Shown here piece after piece: positions 40 through 41,906 of a DNA stretch of 41,906 bases. The position numbers and the translations under genes were made by a program. Positions within the stretch are counted from its first letter, which is position 1. Each line of letters opens with the position of its first letter. Location: the sequence record MN850624.1; one strand, 5' to 3'. Under the pieces are notes generated by a model, which was given only the letters and a program-made list of their open reading frames with translations, ran no database searches and was not told the origin of the DNA. Source of the DNA: Escherichia phage usur.

Positions 40-576
40 CTACAGCGTCGCACAGTAAGCGCTACAGCGTTTTGCACGAGCAACCAAGGCATCCCTATAG
101 CGAACGACTGTCGGGGCTTTAGAAGCCTTTAGGAACGCAATACGAAGGTCACAGACGGCTGCTGCTGCGGCGTGAGGTTCCAGACGTTGTGCTGCTTCCA
201 AGGTGACAGTACCAATATCCCCGTCCTGTGCAACGCCGCATACCCGCTGTAGAGCTTTCGCAGCACGGGAGATGCCGGAGTTGACGCCGTAGTCAAACAC
301 GGCACATGCAATCGCAGGGTGAAGCTCGTCACCTCTGATGGGGCTGTAGTAGTCCCGGCGATAGATTGCTTCGGCTTGCTCTTTGGTGAGCTGTTTAATA
401 GGCACGCACACAGTGCCGCCAAGCCCAGTAGGGACACCACAAGCTCTGCCATCCAGCTTCCCATCACGAGCGTCACTAATTCCATGGTTGGTTTCCCCTC
501 CAGTGTCACCGGGCAGCTTGGTGTACCCACCCTCGGCCAGCCCGGTGAACTTCATACAGATTTCAAAGTTAGTCAT
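40..576 (-). CDS. endolysin, GH108-like lysozyme domain plus peptidoglycan-binding domain
   Basis: N-terminal 'GLAEGGYTKLPGDTGGETNHGIS' matches the GH108 signature (EGGY...D.GG.T..GI); C-terminal 'DGDIGTVTLEAA' resembles a PG_binding_3 motif. Last gene of the phage, the usual position in phiKMV-like genomes. No signal peptide or SAR helix seen. Confidence 0.7.
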   Translation of the reverse strand: MTNFEICMKFTGLAEGGYTKLPGDTGGETNHGISDARDGKLDGRACGVPTGLGGTVCVPIKQLTKEQAEAIYRRDYYSPIRGDELHPAIACAVFDYGVNSGISRAAKALQRVCGVAQDGDIGTVTLEAAQRLEPHAAAAAVCDLRIAFLKASKAPTVVRYRDALVARAKRCSAYCATL

Positions 577-959
577 TACATCCCCACAATCGTTGTGATA
601 AAGGACTGGAGCGCCGTGAGGTCGCCAGCCTTGACCGCAAGATAGATACCGCTAACGAGTGAAGCGGTCAGGAGACACCACTTGACGGCGTGAGCCGCGT
701 AAGAGAACAGCTTACCGATGTGGCTCATAGTCTTTTGAATGTCCTGAATTTGCTCGACGACACGGAGCTGCTGCTGAATCTCCAGCCACCGGGAGTCGTT
801 CTCCGATAGCTTGGCCAGCATAGCAGCATCACCTTTCTCAAGGTTGGCGATTTGAATCTCGTGTTTGTCGAGGCGAGTTTCTACGGATTGCATACGAGCC
901 TCCACAGCGCCCATACGCGAGTGGATGTTAGGAGTTGGCTCCTTCTTTGCTTCCGTCAT
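576..959 (-). CDS. membrane protein with N-terminal coiled-coil and C-terminal TM helix; possible holin/antiholin
   Basis: 127 aa ORF; heptad-like polar N-terminus, hydrophobic stretch 'VKWCLLTASLVSGIYLAV' near the C-terminus. Sits between the lipoprotein gene and the endolysin. True start may be the internal Met (MGAVEARMQ...). Confidence 0.35.
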   Translation of the reverse strand: MTEAKKEPTPNIHSRMGAVEARMQSVETRLDKHEIQIANLEKGDAAMLAKLSENDSRWLEIQQQLRVVEQIQDIQKTMSHIGKLFSYAAHAVKWCLLTASLVSGIYLAVKAGDLTALQSFITTIVGM

Positions 960-1416
960 CTTTCACCTTCTTCTTCCACGGAGATGGTACAAACCACATC
1001 ACCAGACCTAAGATACAAGTAAGGCCCATGCCAAATGCCCACAGGAGACTGCGTGGGTCGCTCTGAGAGACCACGATAGTCTTAGCCTGCACGTTTCCAT
1101 TGGTAATCTGCGAACCCTGCTTAGAAGCGTTTACAGAGCCTCCTGTGACGTCCTTCACAGTCGTCGAATCACTACCCTGTTTAGCGGTATCCACTTGCGC
1201 GTTACCAGATACGTCACCGACCTTCGTTTCGTCGGACTGTTTCGCAGTCAAGCCGATGCCCTGTTTCGTGTTCTCTGCGCCAACCTGTGCCGTTAGTTCC
1301 GGCTTATTGGGAGAGACAGCCGAGGTTACAGCAGACAGTGCGCTTGTTGCGGAGCAGCCCGTCAAAGTCAAGGACAGTGACAGGACTGCCCCGGCCATAA
1401 GCCGAGACAGTTTCAT
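928..1416 (-). CDS. outer-membrane lipoprotein with C-terminal TM anchor; candidate unimolecular spanin
   Basis: N-terminus 'MKLSRLMAGAVLSLSLTLTGCSA' is a signal peptide with lipobox (LTGC); C-terminus 'LLWAFGMGLTCILGLVMWFVPSPWKKKVK' is a TM helix followed by a basic stretch; the middle is Thr/Ser/Gln/Lys-rich. Located in the lysis cassette. Confidence 0.5.
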   Translation of the reverse strand: MKLSRLMAGAVLSLSLTLTGCSATSALSAVTSAVSPNKPELTAQVGAENTKQGIGLTAKQSDETKVGDVSGNAQVDTAKQGSDSTTVKDVTGGSVNASKQGSQITNGNVQAKTIVVSQSDPRSLLWAFGMGLTCILGLVMWFVPSPWKKKVKDDGSKEGANS

Positions 1417-2303: not shown

Positions 2304-4063
2304 TATCTAATTCTCCGTCGCGTACCGCGTACAGGCTTGTGGCTGCGCCATTTCGGGTCATCGTACCCCATAGGGTTGGCGATGAACTCTTTGGCCACAG
2401 CGACTGCACGGCGCTCCGCTTCTTCGTTTTCGTCTTGCTGCAACACCTCGGCGTGGAGGTACACGGCAGCGGCTAAGGTTTCAATTCGGTCATCGTGTGG
2501 GATGGATTGACGGTCTTGAGTCAGGTTCTGGAGCTGCCAGAACAGGCTGTACTCACGGCCACCGTTGGCCATACCCCGGCATAACCGCAGGTCTTCTTCA
2601 ACAACGCTCCAGTGGATAACCACACGGTGGCGCTGCATGATTGGGCCGAGGCGGTTGATGATACGCACCTCTTTCTGGCCGGACGAGTACACACCCTCGC
2701 AGCCCATGGTCAGCTTCTGCCGCTTAATCTCACCTCGGTACATGTTGGTCACGGTGCCGTGGCCCATGTTGTCCTCAATGACGAGACGTTTGCAGCCCAA
2801 CTCACCTAACCACGACACCGCCGTCTGGATGTTTTCCTCCGTCTGGCCGCCGTGGTAGACGTGCATACCAAGGACGTGGATAAACGGGCCGATAGAAGCG
2901 GTGACGATGATAACTGATTCATCCGACCCACCACCAGCAGGGTCAAGAAACGCCGAGGCATTTTCGAATGGTACATAAGTGTCCGAGAAATCAGCAGCCA
3001 AGAATAGCTGCGCACGAGCGAGTGGGAAATCCAGTGGCAGCTCGGCGGCGTGCCGTGGGTGATTCGACCAATGCAAGACTTCCGGCGCGGAGATAGGCGA
3101 GCCGTGGAAGAAGATTAAGTCCTTGAGATGCAAGGTCTGTTTGAGAGCATCCGACAGAGAAGTGTCCAGCATGAACTGCAACTGGAAGCCTGCCTGCTGG
3201 TAGTCTCGTTCGTTCTGCAACTGCTTTTCTTCGGAGTAGCGTTGCGGGTCGGTCTGCGCACCACGGTTCCCAAGGATACCGTAGCCTGTGCGAAGTTCCG
3301 GGTGGCCCTCCATCTTCTGCTTAATCCACGGGGCCAGACAGCCGCCGTAGCGTTCTTCTTCCTCAACCGTTGGGAAACGACCGGGCCAGATGCGAACGTC
3401 GAAGCCACGCTGCGGGAGCGTGTTGTAGATGGAGTCCTGAGTCTGTGGCGTGCCGAGGTACAGAATCTCTGCACCATCGTTGGCGATAGCCGCGAACTCT
3501 TTGGTCAGGGTGTTGATACGGGCGCGGTTGGCAGGAGAGCTACCGTTACTGGTAGTCTCCACGTCATCGGCAATCAACAGCGATACGTGGTTCCCCTGCA
3601 ACTGGCCGAAGATACCGACCGCTTTTACAGAGGGTTGTTTGTCAGGGATACGGAATGCGTGATGCACGTCGAAGCCATCGGTGTACGATGTACGTGCGCC
3701 AGCGCGAGTCTCCGGGCGTAACCATTCCAACCTGTCCCATTGCATGATAGCCGACACGATAGCGTGCGACAGCGTACCAGCATAGTCGTCGGAACCGGAT
3801 ACGAGCAGGACAGTGGCGTTCGGCATCTGCACAAATTCGTACAGAGCACGGGCAATGCCGATGGTGGACTTAGCCTCACCACGCTGCGCCATGACGCACT
3901 TGTTCTTGAGCGTCCGGTCGGCCATGTAGCGGCCAATGTCGAGCTGCATTTCAGTGAGGTCAAAGCCCAGCCATGCGAAGTAGTCATGCAGGAACAGCGG
4001 GAAGTTGTTCTCGTAGTGAGCGCGAACGATTCCTGCCATCACCATGCGGCGTTGTAAATCCAT
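2303..4063 (-). CDS. terminase large subunit (DNA maturase B)
   Basis: 586 aa, the same length class as T7 gp19; position after the small subunit and tailspike as in phiKMV-like phages. Confidence 0.85.
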   Translation of the reverse strand: MDLQRRMVMAGIVRAHYENNFPLFLHDYFAWLGFDLTEMQLDIGRYMADRTLKNKCVMAQRGEAKSTIGIARALYEFVQMPNATVLLVSGSDDYAGTLSHAIVSAIMQWDRLEWLRPETRAGARTSYTDGFDVHHAFRIPDKQPSVKAVGIFGQLQGNHVSLLIADDVETTSNGSSPANRARINTLTKEFAAIANDGAEILYLGTPQTQDSIYNTLPQRGFDVRIWPGRFPTVEEEERYGGCLAPWIKQKMEGHPELRTGYGILGNRGAQTDPQRYSEEKQLQNERDYQQAGFQLQFMLDTSLSDALKQTLHLKDLIFFHGSPISAPEVLHWSNHPRHAAELPLDFPLARAQLFLAADFSDTYVPFENASAFLDPAGGGSDESVIIVTASIGPFIHVLGMHVYHGGQTEENIQTAVSWLGELGCKRLVIEDNMGHGTVTNMYRGEIKRQKLTMGCEGVYSSGQKEVRIINRLGPIMQRHRVVIHWSVVEEDLRLCRGMANGGREYSLFWQLQNLTQDRQSIPHDDRIETLAAAVYLHAEVLQQDENEEAERRAVAVAKEFIANPMGYDDPKWRSHKPVRGTRRRIR

Positions 4064-4377: not shown

Positions 4378-6750
4378 TTAGATATAAGTGACCGGGTACG
4401 TCGCGGCAAGCTGAGTCCCAGCAGGGATAGCCGTAACGAGCGCCGGGGTAATGTCGATGCGTACCGGGTTCCCGATGTTGTTGTCCACCTGATAAGGCGC
4501 ACGAACCACCGTAACCGTCAGTGGCGCACCACCAGCGCCAGCGCCCGGCACCTGTAGACGAGTACCAGCCGAGATAGGCTTATGGTACAGCCACGAGGTG
4601 GAAGCCTGAGTACCAGCCGGAGTCAGGTTCTGCTCAAGATACGTCTGGCCAGCGGCAGCAGCACGCACCTTGAAGTTGTTCCCATCATCCGGGATATACG
4701 CACCGAAGCCTGTCACGATGAAGTTGCCACCTGAGCCGTCAGTCTTAAACAGCACCGTCCCCTCGCAGAACTCTTTACCAGTCGGGAACTCCCCACCAGT
4801 CAGGGTTGCAAGGTTATTCGGTAGCGTGTACATGCGGTTGACCGGAGACAGGATGACGCCTACGTTACCTTGGATGTTGGTGTACGGGATAGCACGCACG
4901 TTGGAGTTCAGCGTGCTGATATCCGAGTAGCGAGCCTTACTGTACAGCGCACCCTCAGTCATGCCCTCGCCGTAGAAGTTCACGTTCACCATGTTGAGAA
5001 CAGTCTTCTTGCGCGGGTACAGACCGTTGGATGAAGTGCCGCCGCTGGAGTCATCGCCCACAGCATCGAACACCACCCCGGTCACGTTGGTCATATTCAG
5101 CAGCGTTGCCACGCCGAACAGACTCATCGTATGACAGTGGATGTTTTCCAGATGGTACGTGTTGTTGTTCACGTCATCAGAGCCAACGCCAGCATAGAAG
5201 CGTCCGGTACGGGTCTGCACGTTGCGCACAGTCATGTCAAACGAAGGACATGCCGCGCCCGGCGTACCGCCTGCACCTGCTTGGTTCGCACCCCACTCCA
5301 GCATAACGAGACGAATCGCGTTAGGAGAAGTTGCGCCAGTGTTGATTGGCTCACCAGCCACGCCATCAATGGTCATTCGCTTGCAGCCGTAGGTGATTAC
5401 ACCTGCCGCCGTCAGGCCAGTGCCAGTTGACACAGCGAGGTCAGGGTTACAGAACACGTTCTCACACACGCTGTCGCGGGTAACTTCGAAGTGGACAACC
5501 TGACGCACGCCACGCGGAGCATGGACGTTACGGACTACCACGTTCTTGGCGTACTGCGTTTCAGCAGCATCCCAACCGAACGGGCCTTGGCCAGCAATAC
5601 CAATGCCGATACCCCAGTTGGACAGGGGGATAGGAGCGGTCGTACCGTCGAGGTCTTCAAGGTAGATGTTCTCAATCAGCAGGCCACCATCATAGTGCTT
5701 GTTGATTACGTTCATCTCAATGCCGTCACCCAGCATGTTCATCATAGCGATGTTGCGGATAACGCCGTTCTCGATAGCCTCACCCGTACCCTGCTGGAGA
5801 ATACCGAACTTGCCATTGCGGTGGATACCGTTCTCAATGACGTAGCTGCCCCCGGCGATGTTACCTTGGAACAGGATGCTCGCTACCTTGGAGTTCGATG
5901 GCGCACCAGTGAACTCGTAATCGGAGATGCGAACCTTGCCACCCCAGTAACAGACACGGACAGTGGAGGCTTTGAAGTCACGGAACGTGGAATCCAGCAG
6001 CCGGATATCAGCCGTACCGTTCCAAGTGCCGCCGACAACCTCGATACCGTCCATCAGGACAGTGGAGTTGACAGTACCGACCCAGCCACGGGCATCCACA
6101 GTCTTAGCGTTAGCCTTGGCATAGTCGAAGCACGCTTGTACCGCAGCGGCGATAGAGGCGTACCCGGTGTTGTTGGTGAACTCTGACAGGCATACGGTAT
6201 CCTGACGGTCAAGGAACGTACCGCCGCCCAGTGTACCAATCCACTTACCGCCGTCAGCCATTGCCAAAGCAATCGCCAGTGCGGAGTCAGGGATATCAAC
6301 CAGAGGAATCATGAACGGCTGGCCATTGCTGTCAAAGCCCAGTGCCTTGTTGCGGCGGCCAGCGACGTTCGGTAATGCGTTGATGGAGACTTCGGAGTTT
6401 GGGACACGGACGGCGCGGTCAAGCGGCGCGAGCCATGCTTCCTGAGTTTCCTCAGCCTTGAACAGAATCTGCTCGAAGTTCTCGTCGAGGTTGCTGCCCG
6501 TAAAGGCAGCGTCCTGTCCGAACTTGTTCAGCAGAGTCTCAGAGGTGTAGCGTTGCAAACGGACAATCACCCCGGCAAGCGGGGCGGTGTCAAAGACAAT
6601 CTGTTTGGTCACAGAGTTGTAGGTGTACCCGCTCGTCTGGAGTTCGGAGTTGAGGTACACCTGAATCTGTGTGAACACGCGCTGCTCAAACGTAACGAGG
6701 AACGCGGTCTGCGAGCCGTTCGCCACGTAAGTGTTGTAGCTGTTCGCCAT
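4378..6750 (-). CDS. tail fibre/tailspike with T7 gp17-like N-terminal adaptor and beta-helix depolymerase domain
   Basis: 790 aa; N-terminus 'MANSYNTYVANGSQTAFLVTFEQ...' resembles the T7 gp17 N-terminal domain; central region is Gly/Asn/Thr/Val-rich in a way typical of pectate-lyase-like right-handed beta-helices. Confidence 0.75.
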   Translation of the reverse strand: MANSYNTYVANGSQTAFLVTFEQRVFTQIQVYLNSELQTSGYTYNSVTKQIVFDTAPLAGVIVRLQRYTSETLLNKFGQDAAFTGSNLDENFEQILFKAEETQEAWLAPLDRAVRVPNSEVSINALPNVAGRRNKALGFDSNGQPFMIPLVDIPDSALAIALAMADGGKWIGTLGGGTFLDRQDTVCLSEFTNNTGYASIAAAVQACFDYAKANAKTVDARGWVGTVNSTVLMDGIEVVGGTWNGTADIRLLDSTFRDFKASTVRVCYWGGKVRISDYEFTGAPSNSKVASILFQGNIAGGSYVIENGIHRNGKFGILQQGTGEAIENGVIRNIAMMNMLGDGIEMNVINKHYDGGLLIENIYLEDLDGTTAPIPLSNWGIGIGIAGQGPFGWDAAETQYAKNVVVRNVHAPRGVRQVVHFEVTRDSVCENVFCNPDLAVSTGTGLTAAGVITYGCKRMTIDGVAGEPINTGATSPNAIRLVMLEWGANQAGAGGTPGAACPSFDMTVRNVQTRTGRFYAGVGSDDVNNNTYHLENIHCHTMSLFGVATLLNMTNVTGVVFDAVGDDSSGGTSSNGLYPRKKTVLNMVNVNFYGEGMTEGALYSKARYSDISTLNSNVRAIPYTNIQGNVGVILSPVNRMYTLPNNLATLTGGEFPTGKEFCEGTVLFKTDGSGGNFIVTGFGAYIPDDGNNFKVRAAAAGQTYLEQNLTPAGTQASTSWLYHKPISAGTRLQVPGAGAGGAPLTVTVVRAPYQVDNNIGNPVRIDITPALVTAIPAGTQLAATYPVTYI

Positions 6751-9700: not shown

Positions 9701-9857
9701 GCATCTTATCGAACTGCTCAACAGCACCCTTACGAGTGGCGTCTTGCAGTGGAGTGCTGAGCGTCTCAGCTTTTACGGGAGCTGGAATCACCAGCGTAGG
9801 GGCGTTGGCCCCCTGCTTGGGAGCCATGAACTTGTCGAGCGATTCTTGTGTAATCAT
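6750..9857 (-). CDS. internal virion (ejection) protein, gp16-like
   Basis: 1035 aa, last of three consecutive internal-virion-protein genes after tail tubular B; Ala/Arg-rich helical composition. Confidence 0.7.
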   Translation of the reverse strand: MITQESLDKFMAPKQGANAPTLVIPAPVKAETLSTPLQDATRKGAVEQFDKMQELEATPIATALSASVKNWDTTQLFDAAINKPVFQADPDFHPNEALQNVQFPVTEDDRTFLFKSKSMDEFNWRTQQLQEMRERTQLAHTAPVMNAVLQFADPLYLATDLLSMGAGTALKLGRLGTAAVGAASTAVTMTAVGNEARPVSQNEIIFAAALHGAATTAFYRPAAAPARRLDELSPEEFAAEMQRRNGIDPNNPPQFDPNNAMSPLAMSLGFGRRGAMETDEVPESIRAAAQRGLDLARRGEQTNPKRPFLEWSLFKSFSQHSDEASALAGRLLDDPLNPNMTSAAAIQRETQARFGVLLNQYEDTLRHALTTDGWSNIRRFRDPVGYRRAQQEFEAAVRLELDKRMIDNNFRGANPNVANAADRLGEYSRAVGRELERKGMVEPGFVEKNPYYYPRRMNVTKVEQAEQLLGKKAFMKQMTTAVQRGIGTDRPTANVIAHAMVERARRKGYGIDNSGMIINKEGRDELLEIIENSKGLDEAAKARASALLRESGSDAGRPSMLKSRINIDMMHQLGPNLQVRDLFDDSITSMMDAYNRRITGRLALHEAGLGTDAERAAAREALAKSIKDGTARRQALEQYDNIMAYYQGSPVGEEMPQFMRQLSALTQATGLAASGLWQLVEYGTMMQRFGAVNTFRAMMRTIPEARALFKQMRATTKEGRQLALDAEEALTAAVASDIRMRPIMQHYEDMFSADKSPWVMRLEHARDATMFINMQKYIHFHQTRTNAALVMQTLRKAAEGDAKAIAAMKTYGANDALLADIRKQVGTHGTKPDAWDEGVFNRSRIVMMNAMDDAIVRARVGELPAFAEFSTLGKFLFTFRRFVAATHNKTLVGTWNREGARGMATLMAYQYPLAMMATAANNVISGKAFSDPETMAPNKLAGQALNYLGAIGFASEFTGVLTGQQRSFGAPGLLFLDRAYGVAGAATSAAGGVLTGDTEQAVSGARKTAGNIIQAIPLISIVPGVRALNEAVKGE

Positions 9858-12550
9858 TCCTGCATACCTGCGAGTAGAGTTTGGACGTAATACTGCTTGC
9901 GCTCATCCTGCGACAGCTTGTAAGCCGGGGTCGCAGCCAGAGCCTGAACAGCCTTGTCACGGTCGCCAACACGGATAGCATCAGCCAACTTGCTGTACGC
10001 GCCCTCGTTGCGATACCAGCTTGCGCCAGCCTGATAACCAATCTGCATCATGAACTGGAACTGGGCGTCGTTGTCACGACTCCACCCCAGCGCTGCCGCA
10101 GTACCGGGCATCTGTCGGGCTACCATGTTGGTGTGATTGACGAACGTGTCGTGAATTGTACGAGGCGACCATTCAGTACCGCCGCGCATACCAGAAGCCT
10201 GACCCTCAGAGAAGTACGGGCTGCGGTCGGAGATACCGATGCCGTTGGTCTGGACGCCAGTGCTGTCACGGTACGTGGTGTTGCGGATACCTTCGAACTC
10301 AATCAGCTTGCCACGGGCAACGAGCATACGCTGCTCATCAACCCCGGCAGTATTCACGCCGTTGACACGAATCCCGATGTTGCTGGACTTATCGACAAAG
10401 AGTTTCCCATCACCGTAGACTTCGTTATTTGCGGTGGCGGCTGCACGGTCGTCTTCACGGATACGTTCCTGAATAGCCTGCGGCGTAATCCGGTAGTTAT
10501 TCGGGGAAACGTCACCCGTCTTGTTGAAGAACTGAACGTTCAGTGAGCCATCGGGCATAAACGAGTACGACGATTCGAAACCTTCCGGTGCCTTGCTCTG
10601 GTCAAGTGAGGCGATGGCGCGACCGATACGGTCAGGTGCCACGTCAGCAGGCAGGCCAAGCATAGACTGAACAGTTTGGTTTCTCGGAGCGATAAGCACA
10701 GAGCCGGGACTGAACGTAGTCTCCCCGACACGCAGCACGCGGTTGGCCAGCTTTGCAGACGCGAGTGCTTCCATACCGTCTTTCGTGATGTTCGGGTTCT
10801 TGAGTACCACGGCTTGCAGTTCCTCGCGGTACGCGGCAGACACCTCCGACATTTCCTGCGCAGCAGTAATGTCACCAGATGCGACACGAGCTTGGAACAG
10901 GTTGCGCTGTGTGTCTGAGAACAGACCAGCTAAGCCCTGCCAAGTGCGAGAGAAGAAGCCTTGAGACTCAAGTGAGTTGACTACACTGTTCACGTCAGAT
11001 TGACGCTGTGTTAAGATTTGGGACTTCTGAGCAGGGGTCAATCCAGAGTAGTCCTGCTGCTGCTTGATGTAACCCTGACCAGCTTGGTCGATGGTGCGGC
11101 CAGCTTTAATCTGCTCGCGCATGTACACCATCTTCTCTTGGTTTTCCTCTGACAGACCAGACAGGAGCTTAGTCCATGCGGTCTTGTCACCCTGATTTTC
11201 TGCCACAGTCACACGGTCAATTAGACCAGTGACGGTACGGGCAGCATCCGGGTTCATCTCATCCACGGTGCCGAAGTTCGACAGGGCTGGCTCAATCAGT
11301 TTGGCTGCGGATTTGTACGCAGATGGGAAGCCAGTCTGTGCGCCAACTTGCAGCAGGTCGAATGCCACAGAGCTGGCCGTAGCGCCCGGCTGCTTCATGC
11401 GAGCTTTGATGAATGCGTCAGCACCATCCTGCTCACTTGCGCCCTGCTGGAGCATGTACGTCTGGTTCCCAGTGGCATACGCCTGACCGAGCTGGCTGGC
11501 CTTGGCTTGCTTGGCGTAGTCCTTGTAGAAGGACTCGATAGCAGAGCTGTACCCGGAAGCAGTGATGAGCTTGTTGTCCACTAACTGCTGGAGCACCTGA
11601 CCGTACTGGCCCGGCGTAACGTCTCCAAATACAGCCTGACGAGCATCAAGCTGGCCCTTCGCCTCCAGCAGACCCATGTTATCCTGAACCTCGGTACGAG
11701 ATTTGGATTCACGAATCTGACCTTGCAGCTTGGCCAAGTCCTCAGCAGGCAGGTCATTGAACAGGCCAGAGTTAACCGCCGTCTCGACCGGGGTACGCAA
11801 ATCCTGTGAAAGCATCAGGCCCATCATGGACGTAACCTGCGTGCGCCGGGTTTCCAGCGGCAGCTTGTCGTCGGCCAGAATGGACTTAGCCCAAGCCATG
11901 GTAGCAGCCGTGGCGTTTGCATACGCACCGCCGTCACCGGATGCTTTGGCCTGAGCCGCCAGAGTAACCAGAGTGTTACCCTGAGAGTTGTACATTGCTG
12001 CACGCTGCTCAACCAGATACTTACCGTGCTGCGCAGCCTGCGTGCGAATCAGGGTGTTGCTGAACGTGAGCTGGTTCTCCAGCAGCGACTGGCGACCGCG
12101 AAGGGTCATACCATCGGTATTGTCGAACAGCCCGGTAGTCTTCTCATCAATGACTTTCAGGAAGTCTTGCGGAGACATTTTAGCGTACTCGGTCATGTTG
12201 GCCGAGATTTCAGAGGCTACGCCAGCCATCTGCATACGCTTGAATTGGTCGTTATAACCAGCTTTCTGGAACTGTGCAGTCAGCCAGTTCGAATCCAAAT
12301 CCTCAACAGCCTTACCGCTCGCGGCGGCGTTGGCACCTTTGAGATATTCTTCCTCGTTAGCACGCTCAGTGACACGGCCAGCCAACTGACTGGCCATGTT
12401 GAGTACGCGCTGGATGGACTCAGTAGGGAACGTGTCGATGCGAGTATCGCGGCCTGCGAGACTAAACGGAGTCTGAGCCTGCTGCACATTCGGTACGCCC
12501 TGTTGCGCAGCGTTGAGATTTGCGCCACGCTGGTCACGCATAATTGGCAT
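9854..12550 (-). CDS. internal virion protein, gp15-like; possible C-terminal muralytic domain
   Basis: 898 aa, second of the three internal-virion-protein genes. The C-terminal domain assignment is by positional analogy with phiKMV-like phages only. Confidence 0.65.
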   Translation of the reverse strand: MPIMRDQRGANLNAAQQGVPNVQQAQTPFSLAGRDTRIDTFPTESIQRVLNMASQLAGRVTERANEEEYLKGANAAASGKAVEDLDSNWLTAQFQKAGYNDQFKRMQMAGVASEISANMTEYAKMSPQDFLKVIDEKTTGLFDNTDGMTLRGRQSLLENQLTFSNTLIRTQAAQHGKYLVEQRAAMYNSQGNTLVTLAAQAKASGDGGAYANATAATMAWAKSILADDKLPLETRRTQVTSMMGLMLSQDLRTPVETAVNSGLFNDLPAEDLAKLQGQIRESKSRTEVQDNMGLLEAKGQLDARQAVFGDVTPGQYGQVLQQLVDNKLITASGYSSAIESFYKDYAKQAKASQLGQAYATGNQTYMLQQGASEQDGADAFIKARMKQPGATASSVAFDLLQVGAQTGFPSAYKSAAKLIEPALSNFGTVDEMNPDAARTVTGLIDRVTVAENQGDKTAWTKLLSGLSEENQEKMVYMREQIKAGRTIDQAGQGYIKQQQDYSGLTPAQKSQILTQRQSDVNSVVNSLESQGFFSRTWQGLAGLFSDTQRNLFQARVASGDITAAQEMSEVSAAYREELQAVVLKNPNITKDGMEALASAKLANRVLRVGETTFSPGSVLIAPRNQTVQSMLGLPADVAPDRIGRAIASLDQSKAPEGFESSYSFMPDGSLNVQFFNKTGDVSPNNYRITPQAIQERIREDDRAAATANNEVYGDGKLFVDKSSNIGIRVNGVNTAGVDEQRMLVARGKLIEFEGIRNTTYRDSTGVQTNGIGISDRSPYFSEGQASGMRGGTEWSPRTIHDTFVNHTNMVARQMPGTAAALGWSRDNDAQFQFMMQIGYQAGASWYRNEGAYSKLADAIRVGDRDKAVQALAATPAYKLSQDERKQYYVQTLLAGMQE

Positions 12551-20843: not shown

Positions 20844-21110
20844 TCAAATCACTCTTTCGCGTATGAAATCCAGCACGTCCTGCTTACCAGCTTCTCTGTT
20901 GATGAGAGGAAGGTTAGTGTCTATGGTTACTGTCCGGCCAACCTTCTCCCATGTACCGAAGTGCTTTTCCAGTAGAGCTAACTGAGCTTTAGTGAACGTT
21001 ACTCTATCTAATGGAGATTCTTTACCCATACAATCCTCTCTGAGTGGCAGCACCCCCGCCACTGACGGGGCTACCGGTAGCGTGATATCTATCACTATAG
21101 TAGCTTTCAT
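20844..21110 (-). CDS. hypothetical protein (start uncertain)
   Basis: 88 aa ORF starting MKATIVID. The internal Met at 21029 has a strong RBS (AGAGAGGATTGT-ATG) and lies downstream of the promoter-like element, so the real product may be 61 aa. Confidence 0.4.
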   Translation of the reverse strand: MKATIVIDITLPVAPSVAGVLPLREDCMGKESPLDRVTFTKAQLALLEKHFGTWEKVGRTVTIDTNLPLINREAGKQDVLDFIRERVI

Positions 21111-21139
21111 AAATAGTCAAAGAATACAGTACCTTATTA
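21088..21139 (-). promoter_or_regulatory. conserved element A, candidate phage-RNAP promoter (late)
   Basis: Minus strand reads TAAGGTACTGTATTCTTTGACTATTTATGAAAGCTACTATAGTGATAG; the core CTACTATAG resembles the T7/SP6/K11 promoter core CACTATAG. Starts at the RNAP stop codon; followed by a GC stem-loop (GCCCCGTCAGTGGCGGGG) and a strong RBS. Confidence 0.4.
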
Positions 21140-23569
21140 ACAGAAGAATTTGGTAGATTCTTTGACAAGATTTATGTCCAAGCTGCCCTTAGCTGGAGCC
21201 TCACGATTATACGCTTTGGCAAGCTGTTGAATTGGGTCATGTTGCTCATACATCTGCACGAACTTTTCACGGATGACTTTGTGCAGTAACCCTGCATGAG
21301 CAGCAGCAACACCGAATGAGTCATGGATGGATACCATGTAAACCCCGTTATTCCACATCTCCCACAGCACGCGCATCATGTGGCTGGCGTCCATGGCGTG
21401 TACGAAATTCGGAGCAATCGCAGCCGCACACTTACGTCCGTCAGGCTTATCCAGATACTCCCTCAGTTTAATCTGATGGACACCCATGAGGTGCAGGTGC
21501 ATCGGGGATTCCTTGGACGCTTGGTACAGGTTCGGCACCCGCAAACCGGATGGTGCAATAATCTCCACGTACTCGCCCATGCTCGCAGCTTCCAGCGCGA
21601 TAGCCTGCAACCATGCCATAAGCTCAGCAGCTTTCGGCACAACGCGAGGGATAGCGTTCCACATGAACTCAGCAATGAACTGCGCACACTCCAGCAGGGT
21701 CTTCCCTTCCGGCAGCTTGACGCGGTTCTCACGCAGGTACAGGCAGTAGTAATCCACCATGCCGTGCCGGGTTGCCCCGTACACGTAGGTCATCACTGGC
21801 TTCTTCGCCATCGCCCGAACAATGCCGATGGACACCAGCCAAGCACCCATTGGCGTCGGCGTGACTGCCTCACTTTCTTCAAGAGCCTGCATCGCCGCTG
21901 CTGCCGTCTTAAGATAGATGTCTGCTTTGCGTCCCACGCTATTGATAAGATTGACAGCAGCACCTCCAACCTCATCTCGTAGCATCGCACTGAGGTGCTG
22001 GAGTCCTGAACATGTAGCGTCCCATTGCGTAACCACTCGGCAGGGATAAGTCTCAGGACTTCCTGAGTCGATAGCTCGAATGAGTTCAACAGAAGCAGCC
22101 CACGCTGAGATAGGGCTATCGGCCTCTGACCAGAACGAATCAAATGCCTCTGGAAGACGGCACGCCTCACGTAATCGGGGGAGTGTTTTGTCCGTCCACG
22201 CTGCCCGGTCTTCGAAGTCTGTGGCGTCGTATCCAAAACAATTCGCAACATGTACCTTGAGCCAGAACAGCCCCTCGTTTCCGAGAGCCACTGGTTCAGC
22301 AAGTTCGAGCAGCGCTCGCACCGCGTCGATGGACTGAGGGTTAAGGGTCGAAGAATAATAAATTCGGCCCCGCGTATCGGCGTAAGTCGGGAGATAAATC
22401 CTATCGTACTGGGCATAGCGCTCGGCCTCTTTGACTGCGCCGTTCAGTGCCAGCATCTGCGACGTGAACTTACGCAACTCATTGTAATACAAGCGAGTCT
22501 TCACCTTGTACTCATGAGCTTCCGCATCCATCTGCTGCTGCATTTCCGGTGGGAACTTGCTGATGTACTGGGCGAAGCTGACGCCTGCCGGGATAGTGAA
22601 TGGGAGCTTAGGCTCACGGGGCGGCACAGGCAGCCCCATAATGCCTGTACGGTTCGTTCGCAGGAACTCCAGTACCATTGGGTTAACTCGGTACGGAACG
22701 CTGCTGAGCATCATACACGGCTCTATAACGGGGGTCGGGTCAACGCCCAGCGCACGATACCCTTTGTGGTTCATGCGACTGATAACCCGGTACATTGCTG
22801 ACTGCCCCGGCGAGTGCCACATACCACTGCGACCGTTCGGAGCAATCTGCGCTGGCGGTACAATAAGCGGTGGGCAGCACATGCCATCGGCACGCGGCAT
22901 ATCCAGCCAGTCATTCATTGTGGCCAGCACATCTTCGTGCAGGGCGAAGTGCGCAGTACCGCGCTGACGGTGGTTGCCGCCGACGCGGATAGTGCAGACC
23001 AGACCAGTTGGCTCAACGCACTGCATCATCAGCTTGCCCATGGTGATGAGCGCACGCTGAGGCAGGATATCAATCTCTACCCCAACATTGGCTGCCGACG
23101 CTTTGGCTTTGTTGTAAGCATGGTTCGCTGACTTGGTGCGTGACTTCTTCACGTCAGCCTTAACCTTCTCCATGTACGCCGCGCCGACTGGCCCTGACTT
23201 CTTCGCACGCTGGTACACCACCTCAGCCATGAGCGCCTTACCCATGTCTTTCAGCAGATTCAGTACCGCCTGCTCCGACGCTGCACCGGACACCGCCATG
23301 CTGAGCGCCAGCGACGAACACGCCTTGACGCCCAGCTCACGCATAAATGTCCGGTACTGCGCACCAGCACCACGGGTCGTTTCATTCAGGAGGTCTTGCA
23401 TCGCAGCTTCAACTTGAGGGAAAGCCTCAACCATCATACGTTGGAGCAACGGCACCGACCCTGCCCGGCCAGCGGCCATGGCATCTTTGATATTGTCCAG
23501 CCAGCCCTCGCGGTGTCTGGCTCGCGCTTCTTCTTCAAGTCGAATCTGCTCAGCAAGTAAGTCCATCAT
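21137..23569 (-). CDS. single-subunit DNA-dependent RNA polymerase (T7-like)
   Basis: 810 aa; '[20 protein letters not shown]' (T7 '[20 protein letters not shown]'), '[14 protein letters not shown]' and 'SIHDSFGV' match T7 RNAP catalytic motifs. Confidence 0.92.
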   Translation of the reverse strand: [810 protein letters not shown]

Positions 23570-34359: not shown

Positions 34360-34796
34360 TCGTTATCCCAGTCCGGTATGTACTGAATCTTCTTCTTCAT
34401 CTTCACGCTGGCTACAACTTGTAGCACACGGACAGTACCACCGTGGCGCTCTGCCAGACGCTCAGCTTCATCCCGCGCTTCACGTTCAGTGATGTGCTCA
34501 ATCTTCGGCGGCGTGCTGCCACCCTCAAGCAGACACATGAACCGACCGCGCTTCTGCGCCGGGGTACTGACCAGACTGGTGTTGTCCTCCAGCCAATCAG
34601 ATTTGTAGTGGCTGATATCCGGCTGCGCATTCAAGCGCTCACCAATCCAGCTCACGATGTAACGAGTCTCCCCGCTGCGCTCCCACGCTCGGCGGTCAGG
34701 GTTAACCCATGCGATGATACCCAGCTTACCCGACCGGGTGCCAGTGCCATCGTCGCCTACGATTTCATCCCCGACTTTGTACTTTGGCTTTACCAT
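34356..34796 (-). CDS. hypothetical protein
   Basis: 146 aa, tightly packed in the operon. Confidence 0.5.
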   Translation of the reverse strand: MVKPKYKVGDEIVGDDGTGTRSGKLGIIAWVNPDRRAWERSGETRYIVSWIGERLNAQPDISHYKSDWLEDNTSLVSTPAQKRGRFMCLLEGGSTPPKIEHITEREARDEAERLAERHGGTVRVLQVVASVKMKKKIQYIPDWDNE

Positions 34797-34990
34797 TTAA
34801 TCCACCCCTTACTCCAGCCAATGTCAATGCACTTGGACATGCCAACTGCGCCAACAACAAAGCCCAGCAGCGTACCAATTACAGAGGTAAGCTGTTCTCC
34901 AATGTAAGGCTGAATAAGATAGGCAACACCTACCCACAACGCGCCCCACAATATAACGACGACTACGAATAACATTAATACTCGGAACAT
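34790..34990 (-). CDS. small membrane protein (two TM helices)
   Basis: 66 aa, 'MFRVLMLFVVVVILWGALWVGVAYLI...'; strong RBS GGAGGAAAT before the ATG; first gene after the promoter-like element at 35008-35025. Confidence 0.5.
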   Translation of the reverse strand: MFRVLMLFVVVVILWGALWVGVAYLIQPYIGEQLTSVIGTLLGFVVGAVGMSKCIDIGWSKGWIKW

Positions 34991-35007: not shown

Positions 35008-35030
35008 CAATATAGTAGCTTTCATAATGC
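35008..35030 (-). promoter_or_regulatory. conserved element B, candidate phage-RNAP promoter (middle genes)
   Basis: Minus strand reads ATGAAAGCTACTATATTGGCC, same 15-nt core as element A; 226-bp intergenic gap at the early/DNA-metabolism boundary. Confidence 0.35.
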
Positions 35031-37408: not shown

Positions 37409-37723
37409 TCACGTTAGGTTGATGTTATGACCGTTGATTGAGAGAGTCACGATGGTGGTCACGCCATCATGCTCCAGCTTTTCTTTCAGGTGTGGCAGCA
37501 CATCCTCACACTCACCAACGTAGGCCAGTGTGCTGACAGTGCCGCCTTTGCGTAGGTCAATGACGCAAGCAGAGTACACCTGTCCATCAGGTGCGCCCAG
37601 CGGTACGTCATACGCATCCAAATGCACCTTCTCCACAGTGGCTGCCAGTGCCACATGCACGGTGCTGAGATACAGGGTGGCCAGCATCAACAGCACGAAC
37701 AGATATCCTTTGCTTACCTTCAT
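37409..37723 (-). CDS. secreted/periplasmic early protein (Sec signal peptide)
   Basis: N-terminus 'MKVSKGYLFVLLMLATLYLSTVHVALAAT' has n-, h- and c-regions with an A-L-A cleavage motif; mature part ~75 aa with two Cys. Confidence 0.55.
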   Translation of the reverse strand: MKVSKGYLFVLLMLATLYLSTVHVALAATVEKVHLDAYDVPLGAPDGQVYSACVIDLRKGGTVSTLAYVGECEDVLPHLKEKLEHDGVTTIVTLSINGHNINLT

Positions 37724-37726
37724 GAT

Positions 37727-38065
37727 TTAACCCTCGTTGTCTACGCCAAAGAGATACATCTCCCCTTCGTAGATTGTTGTGAGAGCATAAAGCCATGCCT
37801 TGAACAGCAGCGAACCATCAGCATTGATGTGCTGGTCATTCATCAGGTCGATGATGAACGGTCTGCCCCCGGCGTATGCCTTGCAGCGCTCAATGATTTG
37901 CTCATCGGTGGCATCAGCAATCAGCATGTGCTCACCCATGATTTCAATCTGGTCAATGATGACCAGCCCCTCCTGACCGGACGGCAAGCGGTACTGCAAT
38001 GCAGCAATCTCTTGCCCGTCTTCGAAGTCAGGCCCACGCATTACCTTCACTCGATGTAGTGCCAT
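37727..38065 (-). CDS. hypothetical early protein
   Basis: 112 aa; RBS GAGAGGGGAGC before the ATG. Confidence 0.5.
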   Translation of the reverse strand: MALHRVKVMRGPDFEDGQEIAALQYRLPSGQEGLVIIDQIEIMGEHMLIADATDEQIIERCKAYAGGRPFIIDLMNDQHINADGSLLFKAWLYALTTIYEGEMYLFGVDNEG

Positions 38066-38129: not shown

Positions 38130-38303
38130 TTACAACTTCCACAACCATAGCAGGTTGGTGCTGATACCAACGGCTATTGCTGCGGTGGTTGGCAGGAAAT
38201 AAGCAGCAGCCAGTCCAGCGCTTATGCTTACCTTAAGGATGATGGCCGTCTCCCAGTGCCGACGCTCCATACCCTTGACCCGTTGTAACAGATTAATGTT
38301 CAT
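38130..38303 (-). CDS. possible small membrane protein (57 aa, not in ORF track)
   Basis: Hand translation: MNINLLQRVKGMERRHWETAIILKVSISAGLAAAYFLPTTAAIAVGISTNLLWLWKL; hydrophobic C-terminal two-thirds. Lies in an otherwise unassigned 390-bp gap. Confidence 0.3.
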   Translation of the reverse strand: MNINLLQRVKGMERRHWETAIILKVSISAGLAAAYFLPTTAAIAVGISTNLLWLWKL

Positions 38304-38456
38304 TGCCCAGCGACGGCGCTTCGTCTACCTTATCACCAGCGATGAATGCCAGACCGCCGTTGCTCAGGGAATACACGTTGATTGTAGCCATGGTAAATCT
38401 CCAGTTAGGTTGGGCATGATTGCCGCACTGCCCCGTCGCAACGAGGCAGTAAGGTA

Positions 38457-39975: not shown

Positions 39976-40368
39976 TTACGCCTCCACTACCCAAAATTGC
40001 TCACCATCGTAAGTCCAAGCAGTGAACTGCCCGGCTTCCATCTCCGCTTCTGTCTTGCTGACAAACTTGCCAGCAGGCTTGCCCGGATATGGTGAATCCA
40101 TGAAGATTGCATCATTGTCATCGATCACTACCATGATGCAGTCCTGTTCAAAGGCTTTACAGAACAGCTTAACAGCCTGTCTGATTTCGTAGATTCCATC
40201 GACAGGAAAGACCATGCTTAACTCATACGCATTGTCGAATTTGCCTGTCAGTGTGACCGGAATCACTCCGAACATATCCTGCACCGTTCGCAGTGCCTTG
40301 CAATGAAGCGCCAGATTAACACACTCAGCATTGTTCTGGCGGTATGCGCTTGCATAGATACGGTACAT
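39976..40368 (-). CDS. hypothetical protein, first early gene
   Basis: 130 aa; RBS GGAGAAA 6 nt before ATG 40368; first ORF downstream of the tandem sigma70-like promoters. Confidence 0.55.
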   Translation of the reverse strand: MYRIYASAYRQNNAECVNLALHCKALRTVQDMFGVIPVTLTGKFDNAYELSMVFPVDGIYEIRQAVKLFCKAFEQDCIMVVIDDNDAIFMDSPYPGKPAGKFVSKTEAEMEAGQFTAWTYDGEQFWVVEA

Positions 40369-40846: not shown

Positions 40847-40875
40847 ATTACAACACAGTGTATTCAGCTTGTCAA
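40847..40875 (-). promoter_or_regulatory. sigma70-like early promoter P1
   Basis: On the minus strand: TTGACA (40875-40870), 17-nt spacer, TGTAAT (40852-40847), preceded by TGc (extended -10). Confidence 0.5.
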
Positions 40876-40926
40876 CTACTTTTTACTACTGACTGTCAGG
40901 CTTGCTGCCCTGTCAATCTGGAGCGT

Positions 40927-40955
40927 ATTACAGCATACTCGTTTCATCCTGTCAA
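40927..40955 (-). promoter_or_regulatory. sigma70-like early promoter P2
   Basis: Minus strand: TTGACA (40955-40950), 17-nt spacer, TGcTGTAAT (-10 at 40932-40927). Confidence 0.5.
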
Positions 40956-41063
40956 CCGATTTAATCAGCGCCCGTTCTGAGATGAATAAACCGTACCAGT
41001 TTGCCTGCGTGTGTTTTAACGTCTTTATCAATGACTGTTTAGCTTGCTGGCTGACGTGGAAGC

Positions 41064-41092
41064 ATTACAGCATAGTGAGCTTGCCTTGTCAA
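41064..41092 (-). promoter_or_regulatory. sigma70-like early promoter P3
   Basis: Minus strand: TTGACA (41092-41087), 17-nt spacer, TGcTGTAAT (-10 at 41069-41064). Confidence 0.5.
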
Positions 41093-41330: not shown

Positions 41331-41358
41331 ATAATTATGAAAGCTACTATAGTGATAT
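41311..41358 (+). promoter_or_regulatory. conserved element C (plus-strand copy of the promoter-like element)
   Basis: Plus strand reads TAAGTTACTGTAATCATTAGATAATTATGAAAGCTACTATAGTGATAT, about 40 of 47 positions identical to element A but in opposite orientation to all genes, pointing into the T-depleted tract. Confidence 0.35.
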
Positions 41359-41374
41359 GTATCGCTAGATACGC

Positions 41375-41860
41375 AGAGCGAGCGCGGCGCAGCCGAAACA
41401 AGCGAGCGCGGAACGGCAACGGATGGAATCCGACAGGATGACAGGCGGCAGCCAGTGAACGCAGTAGGACAGGTGACACAGTAGCAGAGCATGACGCGCA
41501 GAGCTGGCGGCGCAGACAGTAGACCAGCAGACAGGACAGCACCACGGCAGCACCGCCACCACACAGCACCACACGGCGCAGAGCATCACGGCAAAAGAGA
41601 CAGATACCCGCACGACCGAGCGCAGCACGCAGCACCGCACAGCCAGCGCAGAGCGTCCCCATAGGACAGCACCGCACCGCACAGCCAGCAGGACAGCGCA
41701 CAGCACGCCACACGGCAGACGATGAAACGCGACACGCACGAGCTATACCGCACGCAGGCAATCCTCTTGACGCGCCGCGCAGCGCACGCGAGCAAATATC
41801 GCGCACGTCGCGAGGCTAATCCGCGCACACGCTATGGGGGCACGCGCGGTCATTCGGGTC
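41375..41860. other. strand-asymmetric, T-depleted (plus strand) low-complexity tract; candidate genome-terminus region
   Basis: Over ~450 bp the plus strand is almost entirely A/C/G with quasi-repeats (GCGCAGAGC, CAGGACAG, CACAGCCAGC). All three minus-strand frames are open here, as expected for an A-poor strand. Confidence 0.6.
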
Positions 41861-41906
41861 GAGGGAGGCCCACGCACAAATAGTCAATTTTCAAGCCGGG
41901 GTATTG

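Follow-up and report, generated by a model that had tools for sequence, protein, structure and literature searches.

An early gene of the T7-like Escherichia phage usur encodes a small protein with a conserved Sec-type signal peptide and a probable place of action in the host periplasm

Small exported early proteins bar further infection in phages T4 (Spackle, Imm) and T5 (Llp), and most of the exported early phage proteins characterised so far are exclusion factors. To our knowledge, no such exported exclusion factor has been characterised in T7-like phages. Bacteria have Sec-exported periplasmic proteins of their own, Ivy, PliC/MliC and PliG, which come as soluble or lipid-anchored variants and bind peptidoglycan hydrolases. 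Here we analysed the 41,906 nucleotides (nt) of Escherichia phage usur (sequence record MN850624.1; the whole stretch is called the window below), and we describe an early gene at 37409..37723 on the minus strand, the product of which carries a predicted Sec signal peptide and is called the exported protein. The described protein nearest to it in design is T4 Spackle, which is early and signal-bearing and whose mature form of 75 amino acids (aa) contains a single disulfide; it inhibits gp5, the tail lysozyme (PMC7677548), acting in the periplasm by binding gp5 (PMC7677548; PMC7650644). T5 Llp and lambdoid Cor are small exported phage lipoproteins that are made before lysis and guard the infected cell (PMC9586334). 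The periplasmic entry machinery of T7-like phages (gp14/15/16) was only recently shown to be the target of a host defence, HXS (PMC13128918).

The interval 37409..37723 is confirmed as a real gene, and its own features are:

37409..37723, minus strand: coding sequence of the precursor, 104 codons and 104 aa, with the ATG at 37723..37721 and the TGA at 37411..37409 (open reading frame (ORF) list and sequence)
37731..37735, minus strand: Shine-Dalgarno sequence GAGGG, 7 nt 5' of the ATG and within the end of the upstream gene (sequence)
37643..37723, minus strand: predicted signal peptide, codons 1-27, with n-region MKVSKG, h-region YLFVLLMLATLYLST and c-region VHVALA (hydropathy and rule-based scan)
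37412..37642, minus strand: predicted mature 77-aa domain, 8.2 kDa, isoelectric point (pI) 4.85 by ProtParam (alignments and AlphaFold2 models)

The full product reads MKVSKGYLFVLLMLATLYLSTVHVALA up to the predicted cut and ATVEKVHLDAYDVPLGAPDGQVYSACVIDLRKGGTVSTLAYVGECEDVLPHLKEKLEHDGVTTIVTLSINGHNINLT after it, and the minus strand 5' of the gene reads ...AACGAGGGTTAAATC-ATG. Purine runs resembling a Shine-Dalgarno sequence stand at equal distance from the homologue genes of Lidtsur, LIMEzero, PGT2 and two metagenomic loci (L009 and L010). The ratio of nonsynonymous to synonymous substitution (dN/dS) was 0.16-0.20 for the gene against its relatives in Lidtsur, L009 and L010, at 56-87% protein identity, and 0.15-0.20 for pairs more distant than that with Lidtsur; these low ratios indicate that purifying selection acts on the gene. 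The exported protein is 100% identical to forsur_38 and 87% identical to Lidtsur gp13; these and the other GenBank relatives are all labelled 'hypothetical protein'. In our literature searches no paper was found that discusses the gene or its homologues, and the papers describing carrier phages omit it.

That the N-terminus is a signal of the Sec/signal peptidase I type, by which the protein would be exported and then cleaved, is well supported in silico. The n-region has a net charge of +2 (two Lys, no Asp or Glu), the h-region YLFVLLMLATLYL(ST) consists of 13-15 uncharged residues with a peak 11-residue Kyte-Doolittle mean of 2.52, and the polar c-region ends in A25-L-A27 followed by A28, with no Pro at +1. 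Signal peptidase I is predicted to cut between A27 and A28, which is the sole -3/-1-compliant site within residues 15-34. A crude signal-peptide rule fired on 10 of the 358 six-frame ORFs in the window, most of them spurious. Taken singly, a sequence is thus unconvincing, and the weight rests on conservation. The n-h-c layout is kept in 20 of 20 homologues, including LIMEzero ORF11 and metagenomic proteins of 30-37% identity, and all 20 have a cut site of the form (A/V)-x-(A/S) at the same place, with A25 and A27 invariant among the Bonnellvirus-like members. The Sec signal peptide proposed in the original prediction, which had been made from the letters of the window, is thus kept in its layout and in its -3/-1 site by the whole family. 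Lys or Arg near the N-terminus was found in 19 of these homologues, the exception (P0019) looking N-terminally truncated, and the residues of the hydrophobic core exchange freely among the 20 while the layout stays. In one homologue (P0023), 14 extra residues are inserted precisely between the predicted cut and beta-strand 1, a place at which a linker would tolerate them. Against Lidtsur, codons 1-27 had a dN/dS of 0.26 and the mature part one of 0.11, and the constraint on the signal region means that the hydrophobic segment is translated. No twin-arginine (Tat) motif is present in the window protein (no Arg in residues 1-27), and no lipobox Cys either (Val at 22, no Cys before residue 53). 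The 77-residue product most likely works in the host periplasm, and its predicted length agrees well with the product of about 75 aa that had been proposed.

The lipobox is a point on which the family varies. Six of the 20 homologues (P0007-P0012) have a Cys at 22 or 24 in a lipobox-compatible setting (VSAC, ISAC, LVSC, A[ST]SC), five residues before the AxA, and these members may be lipoproteins, the family perhaps switching between soluble and lipid-anchored forms. MliC and PliC are a parallel for lipid-anchored and soluble variants within one family.

In the mature part, D36, D39, C53, D56, T65 and C72 are invariant in the alignment of 20 homologues, and the C-terminal motif I-N-G-x-x-[IV]-N-L is kept, with I96-N97-G98...N102-L103 invariant. 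The two invariant cysteines fit an oxidising compartment; no other metal ligands are conserved besides them. Two AlphaFold2 runs, with alignments of 13 and 20 sequences, gave the same topology b1-b2-b3-helix-b4-b5 (b1 31-43, b2 49-59, b3 62-69, helix 72-84/85, b4 89-96, b5 99-101/102), with a core predicted local distance difference test (pLDDT) score of 80-90 and lower values at the C-terminus; the more diverse alignment gave no gain in confidence (pLDDT 72 vs 77). Both models draw the signal as an N-terminal helix followed by a low-confidence linker around the cut site. The fold so predicted, a beta-meander plus helix, is generic, and any resemblance to the RNase H-like/ASKHA fold (a five-stranded mixed sheet with flanking helices and catalytic acidic residues) would be one of structure only. 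By the hairpin register of the models, C53 in b2 faces residues 67-69, which adjoin C72 at the start of the helix, so a C53-C72 disulfide is geometrically plausible, and D36 and D56 would be cross-strand neighbours. The N-G of the C-terminal motif is probably invariant because it occupies the b4-b5 turn of the models.

Compared with Spackle, the exported protein has a very similar build, with a 27-aa signal, a 77-aa mature part and two invariant Cys, and its phage also carries a virion lysozyme motif. However, Spackle is an all-alpha bundle and comes from a myovirus, whereas the exported protein is predicted as b-b-b-alpha-b-b and comes from a T7-like podovirus. No homology to Spackle (gp61.3) was found: no Pfam or PHROG family matched at E<=1, and no PDB chain at E<=10 in a library that included the Spackle entries (6X6O). 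The PDB search was made with the family profile; scans of the protein and all 20 members against Pfam, PHROGs, NCBIfam and PADLOC gave only scattered sub-threshold noise. T4 RI, like the exported protein, is small and has a cleavable signal and a periplasmic effector domain (PMC8385771), but RI partners a holin with a large periplasmic domain, and for the exported protein we found no such holin, no lysis linkage and no match in sequence or fold. Llp and Cor differ in being outer-membrane lipoproteins tied to a specific receptor and receptor-binding protein, whereas the window protein has no lipobox Cys. Ivy, PliC/MliC and PliG are bacterial genes and the exported protein is a phage gene, with no Pfam/NCBIfam match and no structural match to them. 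By sequence, fold and lipidation alike, the exported protein falls outside these T4 and T5 families. We describe it as a lineage-restricted and so far uncharacterised scaffold for early proteins that T7-like phages export, which by analogy may work like the small exported early proteins of T4 and T5.

The early position of the gene was read from the genome layout. At the gene locus, the window shares 99.1% identity with Escherichia phage forsur and 97.6% with glasur, and Lidtsur and J8-65 are relatives; by these identities the window is a Bonnellvirus of the Autographiviridae, a T7-like coliphage. All genes are on the minus strand, in the order SAM (S-adenosylmethionine) hydrolase, about 15 small ORFs, primase and helicase, DNA polymerase, RNA polymerase, structural genes, terminase and lysis genes, which is the phiKMV/LIMEzero layout. 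The features that bear on early transcription are:

40847..41092, minus strand: three sigma-70-type promoter-like sites TTGACA-N14-TGnTGTAAT, upstream of the SAM hydrolase gene and the presumed origin of early transcripts that run over the exported-protein gene (pattern search, 3 vs 0.21 expected)
39976..40368, minus strand: SAM hydrolase gene, the first gene
37727..38065, minus strand: upstream 112-aa gene (MALHRVKVMRG...), syntenic in forsur, Lidtsur, LIMEzero (ORF10-ORF11) and the metagenomic loci L009 and L010
37149..37400, minus strand: downstream 83-aa gene (MSTQAKIVIL...) with its own GAGG (sequence and forsur annotation)
35008..35026, minus strand: first copy of the 19-mer TATGAAAGCTACTATAKTG, a candidate phage promoter, after a hairpin and just before the replication genes
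21137..23569, minus strand: RNA polymerase gene
21093..21111, minus strand: second copy of the 19-mer, just after the RNA polymerase gene

A generic promoter/terminator scan missed the early promoters because their -10 hexamer is TGTAAT, and they were found by a targeted pattern search. The 19-mer has three exact copies vs 0.02 expected. The original prediction of an early gene at 37409-37723 holds by position: the ORF is exact, and it lies co-oriented with and downstream of the three sigma-70-like promoters and, in transcription order, upstream of the first 19-mer. LIMEzero is annotated alike: three host promoters in the corresponding position are followed by ORF1-16, and a terminator and a phage promoter stand before the primase gene. 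Position thus supports an early gene that would be transcribed by the host RNA polymerase, with the 19-mer at 35008..35026 as the candidate end point of the early region. Only 3 nt lie between the TAA of the 112-codon upstream gene and the ATG, and 8 nt separate the stop from the start of the 83-aa gene, so the exported-protein gene is one link of a packed minus-strand operon. The upstream 112-aa gene had no Pfam or PHROG match, and a functional coupling to it was considered and is unsupported, as it persists where the exported-protein gene is absent or replaced. The third copy of the 19-mer (TATGAAAGCTACTATAGTG, 41336..41354) is on the plus strand, opposite to all genes; it lies close to the leading end, with a G+C-rich repetitive stretch (about 41400-41906) on one side and the host-type promoters on the other.

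From 5.8 billion proteins 12 clusters were retrieved, a second profile round raised this to 21, and an exhaustive HMMER profile search of 1.84 billion representatives gave six matches, one of them spurious. We rejected P0015, a 7702-aa repeat adhesin, as a spurious member, since 'NTINLTKDVTVPTVTLTG' in its 29 repeats mimics the C-terminal strand motif. All readable contexts were 42-43 kb Autographiviridae genomes or fragments with the gene in the same slot, always 1-3 nt after a conserved 110-113-aa MA(L/I)H..V..RG gene. The family is very small and phage-only, covering Bonnellvirus, Waewaevirus and probably Ermolevavirus. A clear Sec signal peptide on an early protein was called unusual for a podophage in the original prediction, and this stands only in part: Waewaevirus has a gene of this architecture in the same genomic position, and Ermolevavirus probably does too.

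The Ermolevavirus candidate is the PGT2 g00012/phiKT homologue of 103 aa, PGT2 being an Escherichia phage. Like the exported protein it has a signal (n-region MKPNQKK, h-region IPALLLCSVGLLWAVAGV, c-region NQAYA, with the cut before S), two Cys at the aligned positions, a C-terminal INGxSLNTI (INGESLNTI) and a place in the early region before the primase gene. It was the only match in a viral structure library besides the family itself (Foldseek E 7e-4, TM score 0.59), and profile-profile comparison gave a probability of 23% with E 9e-4. It differs in having only 16-22% identity and in not conserving D36, D39 and D56. We regard PGT2 g00012 as a probable distant relative, with the scaffold in common and the surface not.

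Among the sequenced relatives, the gene was present in forsur, glasur, Lidtsur, Cronobacter RZ4, Kosakonia Kc261, Pantoea ROV85 and LIMEzero, and it was not found in other Bonnellviruses, being absent from J8-65, altidsur, LF82-23 and HHU8. In HHU8, altidsur and LF82-23 the upstream gene is kept and the slot is filled by an unrelated gene of about 80 aa without a signal. In HHU8 (locus L004, about 3381-3470, the counterpart of window 37409-37438), a remnant of the exported-protein gene, its last six codons and the stop, is fused to the start of the altidsur-type 80-aa gene as MARSILIRIIGH followed by NINLT and the stop; the whole reads MARSILIRIIGHNINLT and the stop. From its sequence, this fusion is a recombination scar at a short IIGH/INGH microhomology. 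A nonsense allele, Gly47 GGA->TGA, was found in two Bonnellvirus-like contigs (L015 5857-6171 and L014 2863-3177), which sit in the E. coli assemblies GCA_045798845.1 and GCA_050488985.1, and the gene is therefore dispensable for propagation in those cultures. The gene is accessory on the evidence of these genomes. Lidtsur has about 70% genome identity to the rest, and as the gene is present in both Lidtsur and Waewaevirus, an ancestral gene with repeated loss would be the simplest history. This makes a compact, dispensable and naturally polymorphic test case in isogenic-like phages, with the gene in forsur, glasur and the window, without it in HHU8 and altidsur, and with the nonsense allele.

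As receptor masking and lysis control are both disfavoured (below), a periplasmic binder of incoming phage parts or of a host envelope component remains. The whole is best explained, tentatively, by an early exported accessory factor that binds protein in the periplasm. The 104-aa precursor would be made early from transcripts of the host RNA polymerase, exported via Sec and cut by signal peptidase I after Ala27, and cleavage would free an acidic 77-aa alpha/beta domain with a single disulfide (C53-C72) into the periplasm, where it would serve as a small accessory protein-binding factor in the envelope of the already infected cell. The functional step is more tentative, and our best guess for it is a possible binder of the Spackle kind that excludes superinfecting phages or guards the entry site. 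The exported domain would bind a periplasm-exposed part of the entry apparatus when further phages of its own lineage arrive; later infections would then fail, and the envelope would be spared damage from repeated adsorption. The candidate target is the lysozyme-motif region of an internal virion protein:

9854..12550, minus strand: 898-aa internal virion protein with a lysozyme motif (PHROG 2083/7), matching PHROG 2083 ('internal virion lysozyme motif') and, weakly, an endolysin PHROG

The motif lies at residues 749-871, a segment of pI 9.4 and net charge +3 for which Pfam gave no match, and it must act in the periplasm. We favour superinfection exclusion because most characterised exported early phage proteins are exclusion factors, and because the Spackle design is nearly the same and the phage injects this 898-aa lysozyme-motif protein. 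Several points weigh against it. Pfam, PHROG, PDB and structure searches gave no relation in sequence or fold to Spackle or any other exclusion protein. The ING..N conservation could be explained by the predicted beta-hairpin turn, so it points to no target, and charge complementarity counts for little, as the lysozyme-motif segment is only mildly basic. Superinfection exclusion is also of limited obvious value to a fast lytic phage, and sister phages with the same virion proteins manage without the gene.

A periplasmic counter-defence or host-takeover effector is doubtful but deserves the next place; here the domain would bind a component of the host envelope and not of a phage, such as a periplasmic defence effector, stress sensor or cell-wall enzyme. 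In T7-like phages, small early genes that are accessory and evolve fast are typically host-directed, and the patchy distribution of the gene fits an arms-race gene. Between phages isolated on Escherichia, Cronobacter, Kosakonia and Pantoea the protein is 96-97% identical; a conserved target in enterobacteria would agree with this, but at this locus the same phages also have about 90% DNA identity, and relatedness alone may explain the conservation. The periplasmic HXS system delays T7 genome entry, and escape mutations lie in gp15/gp16 (PMC13128918). However, Pfam, PHROG, NCBIfam and PADLOC scans gave no similarity to known anti-defence proteins or defence components, and no candidate host target can be named. 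If exclusion or envelope counter-defence is true, the gene would matter for the design of phage cocktails with colanic-acid-degrading Bonnellviruses, and its domain would be a new fold among periplasmic phage effectors. If the protein has no measurable effect, it remains one more ORFan. For the specialist, the exported protein is a reasonable cloning candidate rather than a surprise.

It is unlikely that the protein is exported and stays membrane-tethered, by an uncleaved signal anchor or, in some relatives, by a lipoprotein signal; this would be a variant of either the exclusion or the host-directed reading. Residues 7-27, 21 in all, are long enough to cross a bilayer and form a single helix in the AlphaFold model, and the lipobox-compatible Cys at 22 or 24 in 6 of 20 homologues speaks for tethering in those members. 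But the hydrophobic core proper is no longer than 13-15 residues and gives way to polar S-T-x-H, the pattern of cleaved signals, and the small residues at -3 and -1 are kept in every member, which an anchor would not need. The window protein itself has Val and not Cys at 22.

An action in the phage's own infection seems quite unlikely. In this case the exported protein would shield or stabilise the ejectosome tunnel or neutralise gatekeeper defences such as HxsA. Genome entry in T7-like phages is slow, as transcription of the early region pulls the DNA in (about 10-12 min for T7; PMC13128918), so that an early product exported via Sec could arrive in the periplasm with most of the genome still in passage through the ejectosome tunnel. 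If true, the protein would be the first factor of a T7-like phage to assist entry or counter defences in the periplasm, and it would found a scaffold family common to Bonnellvirus, Waewaevirus and Ermolevavirus.

A lysis-timing regulator or periplasmic antiholin, which would bind the holin or spanin to delay lysis, is very unlikely. T4 RI is such a small periplasmic protein with a cleavable signal peptide (PMC8385771), and the phage has a spanin that reaches across the periplasm. The lysis proteins of the window are:

928..1416, minus strand: unimolecular spanin, 162 aa, with a lipoprotein signal LSLTLTG-C and a C-terminal transmembrane helix (PHROG 1804)
40..576: GH108 endolysin, beside the spanin, with no signal sequence or signal-arrest-release (SAR) sequence

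Homologues of this spanin in J8-65 and LIMEzero have already been placed in the T1 gp11 u-spanin family (PMC6139136). However, the exported-protein gene is about 36 kb from the lysis cassette, and carriers and non-carriers have the same endolysin and spanin types. A holin with a large periplasmic domain is missing: beside the spanin, the forsur annotation lists only one gene of 61 codons. The GH108 endolysin is soluble and lacks both SAR and signal sequences, and Pfam and PDB sequence searches gave no similarity to RI. Protection of peptidoglycan until lysis, one of the roles first suggested for the protein, has no obvious need here, since the GH108 endolysin is cytoplasmic and bears no export signal.

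Masking of a surface receptor was considered together with the receptor-binding protein of the phage:

4378..6750, minus strand: colanic-acid-degrading tailspike, 92.8% identical to the 'colanic acid-degrading protein' of phage NST1

Co-variation of the gene with this protein was rejected, as the colanidase tailspike is 86-93% identical in non-carriers and 59.5% in the carrier Lidtsur. Receptor masking in the manner of Llp and Cor is disfavoured because there is no lipid anchor and gene presence is independent of tailspike type, and by these sequence comparisons it is unlikely for the exported protein.

That the protein is not exported at all, by an internal start or as a cytoplasmic or inner-leaflet peptide, is extremely improbable: in-frame GTG33 and TTG35 do follow a GGAG-like run made by Glu-Lys codons, but this run is 3 nt from GTG33 and TTG is rare as a start codon, the upstream ATG has a canonical Shine-Dalgarno sequence in every homologue, and the signal region is under purifying selection with its architecture kept at 30% identity. 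A true start downstream of the hydrophobic segment had been named as the finding that would speak against export, and what we found in all homologues was an ATG linked to a Shine-Dalgarno sequence and a constrained signal region.

Related catalytic parts of the tailspike are found in unrelated myoviruses and podoviruses, with 46-50% identity over residues 178-790. The early region of the same phage encodes further small membrane proteins besides the exported protein: a 57-aa protein at 38130..38303 on the minus strand, common to forsur, glasur, Lidtsur and LIMElight, and a 66-aa protein with two hydrophobic stretches at 34790..34990 on the minus strand, present in all Bonnellviruses examined. 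Co-occurrence of the exported-protein gene with the 57-aa/58-aa membrane proteins was rejected, as these are absent from the carriers RZ4, Kc261 and ROV85 and present in the non-carrier LIMElight. Compared with forsur, 1108 bp are missing from the window (forsur locus L001 7513-8620, about four small genes), with a 7-nt overlap at the junction 38305-38311. The junction leaves a 32-aa chimeric ORF at 38293..38391 on the minus strand (MATINVY...APSLGNEH), which overlaps the start of the 57-aa membrane-protein gene.

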